DNA of 18,456 nt from a virus (lineage: Duplodnaviria > Heunggongvirae > Uroviricota > Caudoviricetes), in the IMG/VR virus record IMGVR_UViG_2713896795_000004, positions 1-18,456 of that record. One strand, 5' to 3'. Shown piece by piece: positions 2,703 to 4,523 of this stretch (positions within the stretch are counted from its first letter, which is position 1; every line of letters begins with the position of its first letter). The position numbers and the translations under genes are program-made. Under the pieces are notes generated by a model. The model did not search any database, was not told the DNA's origin, and worked only from the letters and a program-made list of their open reading frames with translations.

Positions 2703-4523
2703 CTACTCATAAATGAATCTAATTACATTCCTGAGTTTAGTTTCACAGTTTGGTTGTAATATAACACTACCTTCTAAGTAATCACGTATTCTTTTCCAGG
2801 CATTGAAAGGTTTTCCTCCATCTGAAGGTGCATTTCCATCAATCATTGGATCCCATAGTAAATGTTCAAATGTATCATCTACTCGGAATACTCTTTCGGC
2901 ACCAACTATATTTTCAATCTTCGCATTTGCACGAAATGCGTTTATTGGTGATATGTTACGTATTTCTTCTTCGGACATTCCTTTTCTATCAGTATCATGA
3001 ACAACTTTAAATGGAATATTGAGTTTTGAAAGAATTCTCACTATGGCTGGGATTGTCCATTTCCCTCCAGCAGAAACAATAGTTGTATCTTTTACTAAAT
3101 TTTTTGAGATACCGAATTTGTCGCATAGTTCTGAAGCAAACCTAAGTATTGCTACTTCTGTATCTCCCTCAACTACGACTACTCTTTTAGCGAAAAATGC
3201 TTCACAGACGGTAGGATGAAAATCTAATGCCGCTCGTAACATTTCCCTTTCATTATAATGTTCATCTACATGGAAAATTGTATCATCTATTTCATGAACC
3301 GTTCTAGTGCCGTCATTAGTATCCTTAATTAATTTTAGAGACGATGGGTTTTCTGCAATATCAATTAAGAATGGTGAATGTGTACTAACGATAACTTGGC
3401 AAGAGGCATTTGTTGATTTTTCTCTAAGTTTATCTCTCAGTAATCGCATCAAATGTGGATGTATATATAGCTCAGGTTCTTCATAAAGAATGATTGTTGA
3501 TCTTTGAGACGTATTGACTTCGAATAAAGCATTAGATTCAAGTAAAGCATAAGCCAAAGCCCGTTGAACTCCACTACCCTGATATTCAAGTTGAGTTTCA
3601 AGTTTATCTTCAATGACTAATGTTGCTGCCTTCATTAAAGCAGAATTAATGTCAATTTCAGTTAGGCTTAATTTTACCTTAGATTTTAAGTCCATCACCT
3701 GATTAAGAGATTCAGTAATAGACTCCATTAATTCATGCAATCCTTCAATAACTTCACCATCAACTTCACCTTTCATCTTCTTGTGCAATAGGTCAAGCGA
3801 GGCAGTATATTGGGTGAAAGATGGGTCAGACTGTAGTACTGGATAAACTCTATTAGAAAATAAAAATCCAAAAGGTGTGCCTTTCTGTGATTTAAGATCG
3901 TCCTCAATTTTAAAACATGCTGGTATATATAATACATGCGGTAGAGCTTGCTGTAAGCTATTCTTAAAGTTAATGCCTTCAGAAGTCCAGCATAAATTAG
4001 ATGAAACTTTTTCTGGATGCCTTTGTTTTATTAATCCAATAATGTCACTTTGCATTTCCTTGTAGCTTTTAGCATTATTACAATTAAGTTCATTTATGAT
4101 GTTTAGCAACCACGGAATATTTCTTGCGGCGGTTATAGACGTTGTATAGTCCTCTATATCTTCTTTGCAATAAAATGCTTCATAACAAGGAAGACCTATA
4201 CATCCATTATCATGATCCCATTTAGCTCTAACACGAATACTGAGTTTCCCTTCATGAATTAGATTAGAAATGGCTGGTTTATTTTGCTCGCAATCTTGTA
4301 TGTCGGAAAAAACTCCTGTGATGATCATTTCTTCATTACTGGGTGTACGAAATGGCCAATCTTCAGACGTTGGATTAGTTGTATCAACAAGTATTTTTAT
4401 CGCTTTAAGTATGGTTGATTTACCAATGTTATTAGAACCTATTAAGGTTGTAAAGTTTTCGAGATTGATAGAGGCAGAAGAAATACCTCTAAAGTTTTGT
4501 ATGTCAATACGAACTAATTTCAT
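2703..4523 (-). CDS. OLD-family ATP-dependent nuclease: N-terminal ABC-type ATPase plus C-terminal TOPRIM domain (606 aa); candidate anti-phage defence protein
   Basis: Walker [10 protein letters not shown] (aa 29-37, nt 4413..4439, checked on the reverse strand). ABC signature-like [14 protein letters not shown] (aa 315-328). Walker B IILYEEPE (aa 344-351). H-loop STHSP (aa 380-384). TOPRIM glutamate in VVVEGDTE (aa 449-456, nt 3156..3173 checked) and acidic HDTD (aa 509-512). Architecture and length match P2 Old / class 1 OLD proteins. No UvrD-like helicase partner adjacent. Confidence 0.8.

Follow-up and report, generated by a model that had tools for sequence, protein, structure and literature searches.

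INTRODUCTION

Class 1 of the OLD family is defined by its single-gene organization (Schiltz et al., PMC7049728; 2023 review), and class 1 OLD proteins defend by abortive infection (PMC12392090; PMC12445682; bioRxiv 10.64898/2026.07.10.737580). P2 Old is a tRNase that aborts lambda infection; a tRNA-Thr target and single-stranded DNA hairpins have been described for it, and the protein forms a tetramer held in an autoinhibited state until activation lets it cut tRNA (PMC12445682; bioRxiv 10.64898/2026.07.10.737580). The Vibrio cholerae protein Vc OLD (HAS2513945.1) is a DNA nickase that depends on both its ATPase and its TOPRIM domain, acts independently of RecBCD, and blocks phage replication by abortive infection (PMC12392090). 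In this work we analyzed a window of 18,456 nucleotides, the whole stretch taken from the IMG/VR virus record IMGVR_UViG_2713896795_000004 (Caudoviricetes; positions 1 to 18,456), which carries on its minus strand, at positions 2703–4523, a gene for an OLD protein of 606 amino acids. We propose, with a probability of about 70%, that this gene encodes a functional class 1 OLD that serves as a prophage-encoded abortive-infection defense against superinfecting phages.

RESULTS

Family and class of the OLD protein

The open reading frame (ORF) at 2703–4523 begins with ATG and has no internal stops (ORF list and translation). It is far longer than chance would allow, because about 7.5% of random codons are stops at ~33% GC, and 606 open codons would then occur with a probability of ~1e-20 (an estimate from base composition); the GC content of the region is 29–35%. 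The Pfam search matched AAA_15 over residues 1–387 (9e-38) and the OLD-like TOPRIM family PF20469 over residues 443–512 (2.6e-14), and it gave no match to DUF4435. The ABC ATPase part at the N-terminus (residues 1–387) lies at 3363–4523 and the TOPRIM nuclease domain (residues 443–556, of which PF20469 covers the first part) at 2856–3197, both on the minus strand.

The original prediction for this DNA, made from the letters only, had described a minus-strand ORF of 606 amino acids with a full set of ABC-ATPase motifs followed by a TOPRIM domain. Every motif that it quoted was found at a consistent position: Walker A at residues 29–37 (K35), a signature-like motif at 315–328, Walker B ILYEEPE at 345–351 (E348), the H-loop STHSP at 380–384 (H382), VVVEGDTE at 449–456 (E452 and E456), and HDTD at 509–512 (D510 and D512). 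The numbering of the point mutants proposed there, K35A and E452A, is correct. Of the Pfam domains that it named for a check, AAA_15 and an OLD-like TOPRIM were present and DUF4435 was not.

Comparison with the PADLOC models, also suggested there, placed Old first (1.5e-74, 249.9 bits). The other models scored lower: AriA matched the ATPase half only (5.4e-45, 152.8 bits), the GajA models reached at most 120.8 bits (best 1.7e-35), the retron ATPase-Toprim model 76.1 bits, and the fused AriAB model 73.9 bits (2.7e-21), so that Old exceeded AriA, GajA, and fused AriAB by ~100–175 bits. Among the NCBIfam models, that of the retron Eco8 effector (NF038234) gave 1.7e-15 and 56.7 bits against a cut-off of 250, and those of PtuA, RecF, and RecN were far under their cut-offs. 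The protein falls in an unnamed PHROG family (phrog_4747, 9.5e-101).

The solved structures gave the same order by sequence and by fold. The top sequence match in the PDB was 6p74, the class 1 OLD of Thermus scotoductus (Ts OLD; 1.4e-25), followed by GajA (~6e-11). An AlphaFold (AF2) model built with 64 homologues had a predicted local distance difference test score (pLDDT) of 78.8; Foldseek searches with it again returned 6p74 first (E 1.6e-25, TM-scores 0.55/0.63, the latter on the target), then GajA and then the retron Eco8 effector, all with a probability of 1.00. The alignment to P2 Old showed 23% identity through residues 1–512 (527 columns, E 2e-25). With the Escherichia coli protein YbjD/OldB, BLASTP found only the N-terminal 35 residues and a weak stretch of 21% identity (2e-5).

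On the profile and model evidence, it is close to certain that the protein belongs to the OLD-family ATPase-TOPRIM nucleases. That it is a class 1 OLD is likewise close to certain; it is filed there for its stand-alone context, following Schiltz et al. and the 2023 review in how class 1 is defined. Class 1 had been one of the two options of the original prediction, and the PADLOC Old score, the first rank of 6p74 by both sequence and fold, and the homologues described below, solitary in four genomic contexts that are unrelated to one another, bear it out. The other, a fused PARIS-like effector, was not supported: its DUF4435 was not matched, and the TOPRIM is of the PF20469 type.

The length of the protein needs comment, since class 1 OLDs are shorter on average and 606 residues is nearer the length of class 2 (PMC7049728). 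In the model, only two short helices (571–605) follow the TOPRIM core. The class 2-like length appears to be due to an insertion of ~55 residues in the ATPase half rather than to a class 2 helical domain after TOPRIM. Relative to P2 Old this insertion lies at residues ~100–177 (nucleotides ~3993–4226), and it was modeled confidently as strands and four short helices. Further helices inserted in the ATPase region at ~217–299 had low pLDDT; from the model, they are presumed to form a dimerization or oligomerization region. Pfam, PADLOC (as "Old"), and the annotation of NCBI (as "ATP-dependent nuclease") already recognize the family as such. The protein is a new branch of a known family and not a new kind of system.

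Active sites, conservation, and selection

Mutagenesis of Ts OLD showed that the ATPase residues K34, E276, H283, and H310 are required, as are those of metal A (E377, D431, and D433) and metal B (D381, S478, and E480) (PMC7049728). In the sequence alignment, the ATPase residues correspond to K35, E348, H355 (the D-loop His), and H382 of the OLD protein, those of metal A to E452, D510, and D512, and those of metal B to E456, T551, and E553. The pocket residues E398, E402, D453, and D455 of P2 OLD, which mutagenesis has likewise shown to be required, align with E452, E456, D510, and D512. These ten ATPase and metal residues are invariant in an alignment of 64 sequences with identities down to 47%. 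K571 is invariant in the same alignment, and it is a candidate equivalent of Ts R487, whose counterpart was not aligned.

Codon-level comparison with six orthologues gave ratios of nonsynonymous to synonymous substitution (dN/dS) of 0.04–0.09, which indicates strong purifying selection on the protein. Judged from the residues, the ATPase and nuclease sites are intact and are predicted to be catalytically competent. Among the differences from P2 Old, the acidic residue D454 (nucleotides 3162–3164), which the clade conserves to at least 90%, stands in place of the pocket lysine K400, giving EGDTE instead of EGKTE, and S30 takes the place of the "clasp" tyrosine Y32.

Comparison with described OLD systems

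The OLD protein and P2 Old have a common architecture of ABC ATPase and TOPRIM, can be aligned through residues 1–512, and agree in their catalytic residues. Both are single accessory genes borne by prophages, each a transcription unit of its own and adjacent to cos, although in the window the cos site is a candidate. Apart from their low identity and the residues K400/D454 and Y32/S30, they differ in that P2 Old is without the ~55-residue insertion at 100–177. Unlike P2 old, the gene in the window has no tin-like gene beside it, and its carrier phage, with a serine recombinase and a terminase of the lambda gpA type, is unrelated to P2.

Ts OLD (6P74) has ATPase and metal residues that are identical or conservatively replaced, and the model of the OLD protein, like Ts OLD, shows no apparent class 2 helical domain. 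It differs in identity (20%), length (528 vs. 606 amino acids), and context, since it is encoded on the chromosome of a thermophile; a phage phenotype is not known for it. Vc OLD is, like the OLD protein, a stand-alone class 1 enzyme on a mobile element, and it needs the acidic residues of its TOPRIM as well as Walker A and Walker B; it is inhibited by the ICP1 protein Oad1. It would belong to a different clade, because its K48, Walker B D313, and D468/D470 do not fit K35, E348, and D510/D512, judged by residue numbering only. By analogy, Vc OLD is a plausible functional model for class 1 OLDs other than P2 Old.

YbjD/OldB has the same types of domain, the same host species, and a single-gene context, but its sequence similarity is marginal; it is encoded in the core chromosome, and its anti-phage phenotype is independent of its TOPRIM domain. 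GajA (class 2), the retron Eco8 effector (class 3), and AriA/AriB (class 4) have the ABC ATPase and TOPRIM fold in common with the OLD protein, with much weaker scores. Their defining partners, which are the GajB helicase, a reverse transcriptase with a noncoding RNA, and a DUF4435-type AriB, are missing at the window and at related loci.

A mobile cassette beside the terminase genes

We found that the OLD gene is part of a mobile cassette at 2563–4851, which comprises the ORF with flanks of 140 bp (3′) and 328 bp (5′). In a blastn comparison, this segment was 92.4% identical to the prophage of E. coli C2 (locus L001) and was the only high-identity match between the two; two short weaker matches (73–81%) lay to its left. 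The proteins behaved in the same way: OLD was 96% identical, whereas TerS, TerL, portal, and capsid were 34–52% identical (~37–44% over the main aligned segments; terminase 37%). The synonymous divergence (dS) of OLD between the window and E. coli C2 was 0.21. This value, together with the lack of DNA similarity between the backbones, indicates a recent exchange of OLD between divergent phages. Among 5426 complete E. coli genomes, the C2-type cassette was present in just 7.

The reverse situation was also found. Two complete E. coli genomes have the backbone of the window (TerL 93% identical) without OLD, and other plus-strand genes stand in that place. At loci L002 (8274–11675) and L028 (5014–7363), in the part corresponding to window positions ~1290–4831, five or six uncharacterized genes on the plus strand take the place of OLD. 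Just one of these genes is matched in the window: its product, 131 amino acids long and bearing a signal peptide, is 38% identical to that of ORF 1443–1820. The phage of the window may therefore have lost phage genes on gaining the cassette. The genes that replace OLD in this WGI31CT-type phage gave no informative Pfam or PADLOC matches.

In Citrobacter, and likewise in 9 of the 12 viral contigs from IMG/VR, an OLD protein 62–100% identical to that of the window is encoded in the same position and in divergent orientation to terS. The backbone proteins at these loci are ~27–60% identical in the distant contigs and 94–99% in the near-identical contig L016; in L017, OLD is 86% and terminase 43% identical. 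A recent transfer was considered as an explanation for this better conservation of OLD than of TerL in distant phages, and it was rejected because dS is saturated there (~2.5); it was accepted for the E. coli C2 pair alone. Among sequenced phages, megablast found no close relative of OLD and tblastn found only proteins of at most 30% identity, P2 Old included. Full-length homologues of 604–622 amino acids are widespread in Gammaproteobacteria and rare in E. coli.

The right border of the cassette coincides with a conserved plus-strand element, TAGGTACTCCC-N20-GAGTTTTCGCCGCGAATTAT, at 4802–4851, ~125 bp upstream of terS. It could be aligned in 9 of 10 related phage loci, with or without OLD; in L023 the alignment was not convincing. 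Both cassette junctions fall inside it: homology to the E. coli C2 prophage stops at 4851, and backbone homology to L002 starts at 4832. By analogy with phages that have a lambda-type gpA terminase, we infer that this element is a candidate cos site, and it is also a candidate recombination boundary of the variable region. Variable content thus occupies a fixed site beside terS, with a conserved junction element, among phages that are otherwise syntenic. The OLD gene is an accessory mobile cassette (a "moron"), dispensable for its phage. P2 old adjoins cosR, and in P2-like and P4-like elements the regions next to cos have been shown to be hotspots of defense systems (Rousset et al., PMC9122126).

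Sequences flanking the gene

OLD diverges from terS (4975–5544) across a gap of 451 bp (4524–4974) with 28.6% GC, in agreement with the original prediction, which had the gene transcribed divergently from the terminase operon and separated from it by an AT-rich region of 450 bp. The AT-rich 5′ noncoding region of the cassette, on the minus strand at 4524–4801, is kept in the E. coli C2 prophage, and the OLD promoter presumably lies within it. A consensus scan of 2300–5000 found fewer promoter-like sites than in shuffled sequences and did not locate the OLD promoter, and the corresponding scan for terminators found none at the end of the gene.

Thirteen nucleotides past the OLD stop, at 2663–2690, there is a perfect palindrome of 28 nucleotides with a 12-bp stem (inverted repeat I8, 100% complementary, minus strand). 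Its predicted RNA fold has −23.8 kcal/mol (z = −5.2) and no U-tract, and it belongs to the cassette held in common with the E. coli C2 prophage. It is probably a hairpin that marks the 3′ end of the OLD transcript or stabilizes it; possible roles are those of a terminator, a stabilizer, or a site for protein binding or recombination. At the left cassette border (2505–2576), 127 nucleotides downstream of the OLD stop, lies a perfect tandem repeat, (TAATGAG) x10.3 (TRF, 100% matches, score 144). The number of copies varies by strain: the window has 10, E. coli C2 has fewer than 3, and the IMG/VR contig L016 has 9.

Genes next to OLD in the window and at related loci

In the window, the neighbors of OLD are small ORFs without known function and terS. 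None of the ORFs on either side resembled a helicase, a reverse transcriptase, or a defense model; the small flanking ORFs (25–51 amino acids) had no Pfam or PADLOC matches and were treated as noise or decayed genes. No Rfam family was matched in 1800–5000 at E<=1, and a known noncoding RNA partner, retron-like or other, was rejected on that basis. The homologues in Morganella, Vibrio coralliilyticus, and Aeromonas (48–64% identity) are solitary among unrelated housekeeping genes and have no neighbor in common, and no helicase, reverse transcriptase with noncoding RNA, or DUF4435-type AriB was found at the related loci examined. These results accord with the original prediction, which had seen no UvrD-like helicase (GajB) or separate partner gene. 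The noncoding gaps upstream of the Morganella, Vibrio, and Aeromonas genes (L007–L013) are unusually long (330–950 bp).

When the neighbors at 17 loci were compared all against all, nothing was recovered apart from the packaging genes of the phages and a single facultative family of proteins with two transmembrane segments. The latter are present at 8 of the 10 phage-context loci as 1–3 paralogues of 190–260 amino acids, with a conserved GSISDWISSLSTLGTL motif and a helical C-terminus. Their genes are mostly on the OLD strand and often start 110–430 bp past the OLD stop, but number, distance, and strand vary. In the phages of the Citrobacter/Enterobacter type, the membrane-protein genes after OLD are at 7929–10138 (L004), 7981–9469 (L017), 8253–9020 (L022), 10198–10950 (L023), and 8424–11148 (L020). 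The octameric membrane protein 8xMP sometimes stands alongside them and, among the genes after OLD in the Citrobacter phages, it was the only one with a convincing Pfam or PADLOC match. Neither the window nor the near-identical L016 has the two-transmembrane family; it is likewise lacking in the E. coli C2-type cassette and beside the chromosomal homologues. These proteins may be further superinfection-exclusion cargo.

Host phage and chromosomal position

The packaging and head module follows OLD on the plus strand at 4975–11884, as recognized by PHROGs, Pfam, and synteny with L002 and L028. It consists of terS (4975–5544), a gpA-type terL (5417–7345), head–tail joining (7357–7848), portal (7848–9350), protease-capsid (9292–11154), head–tail attachment (11167–11487), and an ORF of unknown function (11489–11884). 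The exact OLD protein was found on contig LFKC01000009.1 of assembly GCA_001077955.1. The order there is opgH, yceK, msyB, a serine recombinase of 620 amino acids, small unknown genes, OLD, terS, and terL, and then head–tail joining, portal, capsid, IS2, DUF551, and the rest of a lambdoid segment. The OLD-bearing phage thus starts with a large serine recombinase that adjoins msyB; its relatives integrate into yegD. A satellite origin of the type of the capsid-forming phage-inducible chromosomal islands (cf-PICI) was rejected, because the relatives have tail tube and tail fiber genes.

An IS2 element with rve and HTH_Tnp_1 domains occupies 11925–13255 on the minus strand. E. coli records that match the window carry the IS2 annotation, and the matches have their boundaries at 11925 and 13252. 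It cuts the phage just past the ORF at 11489–11884, where the relatives have their tail fiber and tail tube genes. Beyond it, at 13470–18456 on the plus strand, is a separate lambdoid remnant identified with Pfam, with DUF551, DUF4222, and a lambda-type integrase (15968–17038), followed by ybhC (17173–18456); this segment is 97–99% identical to E. coli records of the att-lambda region. The int-xis remnant at ybhC is therefore separate from the OLD phage, which is not an att-lambda phage. The original prediction had placed OLD as cargo of a phage-derived island in the lambda attachment site; the phage cargo stands, and the site is that of another prophage remnant at ybhC, joined by IS2 to the OLD phage at msyB.

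The adjacency to att-lambda thus arose when a rearrangement mediated by IS2 brought two prophage remnants together, and the junction implies an inversion or similar rearrangement with loss of the tail genes of the OLD phage. The msyB and ybhC loci are, we assume, ~300 kb apart in K-12. Since IS2 removed the tail region and the host phage is defective here, OLD, if it defends, would now act as a chromosomal defense gene. In the E. coli C2 prophage (L001, 17382–24041), terminase, portal, and capsid are split into short coding sequences (frameshifted or decayed), and OLD is intact. That prophage is a second case of an OLD gene outliving its phage.

DISCUSSION

A proposed prophage-encoded abortive-infection defense

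The organization of the protein and of the locus suggests how such a defense might work. The N-terminal ABC-type ATPase, with its helical oligomerization insert, would control the C-terminal two-metal TOPRIM nuclease. The gene is carried as a reversed cassette, with noncoding flanks of its own, in a temperate phage's variable region that lies just ahead of the cos-like element and terS. The protein would be autoinhibited in the lysogen, and a nucleic-acid or protein cue from an infecting phage would license ATP-dependent activation of TOPRIM. The infection would then be stopped by cleavage of host tRNA, as with P2 OLD, or by nicking of replicating phage DNA, as with Vc OLD. That OLD defends, and with what trigger and target, is proposed by analogy with these two enzymes.

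Several points weigh against this proposal. The literature search found no experiment on any member of the clade, and identity to the studied class 1 enzymes is low (~20–24%; P2 Old 23%, Ts OLD 20%). Because of this low identity, and because the known enzymes differ in substrate (tRNA vs. DNA nicking), the target of OLD cannot be inferred. YbjD, also a class 1 OLD, gives its phenotypes without its TOPRIM domain. With S30 at the position of Y32 and D454 at that of K400, autoinhibition of the P2 type need not apply, and since no promoter was located, expression in the lysogen is assumed. It is also possible that the ancestral unit was larger, given the same-strand membrane-protein genes that follow OLD in most relatives.

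The nuclease might instead serve the phage itself, in host takeover, degradation of host nucleic acid, replication and recombination, or processing of genome ends at cos. Host-inhibiting phage nucleases are known (PMC12817073), an archaeal OLD homologue has been reported in the cell cycle, and a phage function would be in keeping with the presence of OLD beside the packaging module in 9 of 12 viral contigs of the phage lineage and with its strong purifying selection and better conservation than terminase (86% vs. 43% in L017). We consider it unlikely, since OLD runs against every phage gene around it, has flanks of its own, is missing from the closest backbone relatives, which keep the full module, and has been exchanged between phages without other DNA similarity; its close family members include solitary chromosomal genes with no phage nearby, and it is intact here despite the loss of the tail genes. 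The membrane-protein genes raise another alternative, namely that OLD in the window is the orphan of a larger system, inactive or deregulated after loss of its partner. The 1–3 paralogues next to OLD at 8 of 10 phage-context loci, sometimes with 8xMP, speak for a larger system. Their absence from the window, from L016, and from the C2-type cassette in 7 genomes, where the dN/dS of OLD is 0.05–0.09, makes such an orphan improbable, as do their absence beside the chromosomal homologues, their variable number, distance, and strand, and the lack of a convincing match to a defense model.

An assignment to a fused PARIS-like protein (AriA-AriB), or to a Gabija- or retron-type OLD split from its usual partner, would account for the match of the ATPase half to AriA (5.4e-45), the many weaker GajA matches, the match to the Eco8 effector (1.7e-15), and a length nearer to class 2 than to the class 1 average (PMC7049728). 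It is very improbable in view of the lead of the Old model by ~100–175 bits, a TOPRIM of PF20469 and not DUF4435, an Eco8 score of 56.7 bits for a cut-off of 250, and the extra length, which appears to be that of the insertion in the ATPase half rather than of a helical domain after TOPRIM; neither a helicase nor a reverse transcriptase occurred in any context examined. Least probable of all is a housekeeping ABC ATPase of DNA repair (RecF/RecN/SbcC/Rad50-like) that came to lie in a prophage by chance. The weak N-terminal matches to RecF, RecN, SMC_N, and Rad50 do not reach past the first ~45 residues, around the P-loop, and are far under their cut-offs, the OLD-type TOPRIM is complete, the best full-length matches are OLD nucleases, and the gene is rare and its distribution patchy, with 7 of 5426 E. 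coli genomes having it. Searches by profile and by fold effectively refute this explanation. A RecF/SbcC-type protein without TOPRIM was one outcome to which the original prediction would have yielded, and the searches gave the opposite.

Within the reading of OLD as a prophage-encoded defense, a further and more doubtful step can be suggested. Within class 1, the clade of ~606 amino acids might make up a third functional type, whose trigger or substrate would be unlike those of P2 OLD and of Vc OLD, and the cos-flanking element might serve as the handle by which cassettes are swapped. The insertion at 100–177 and the EGDTE variant might specify the different trigger or substrate.

Current concepts are unchanged by the locus, which adds a member and a context to the family. 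A phage phenotype has been reported for only three class 1 OLDs (P2 Old, Vc OLD, and YbjD), and these differ from one another. A fourth clade, well populated and conserved, would be a convenient case in which to examine the trigger and substrate of single-gene OLD defense, the more so as it is carried naturally in enterobacterial prophages on an easily cloned cassette of 2.3 kb. If OLD is defensive, the locus is a clean natural example of a defense cassette moving between phages without other DNA similarity into the same cos-proximal site, and this recurrent landing site supports the view that genome-end hotspots are general in temperate phages. If the third functional type and the swapping handle prove true, they would extend the rule of cos-adjacent hotspots from P2- and P4-like elements to unrelated cos phages.

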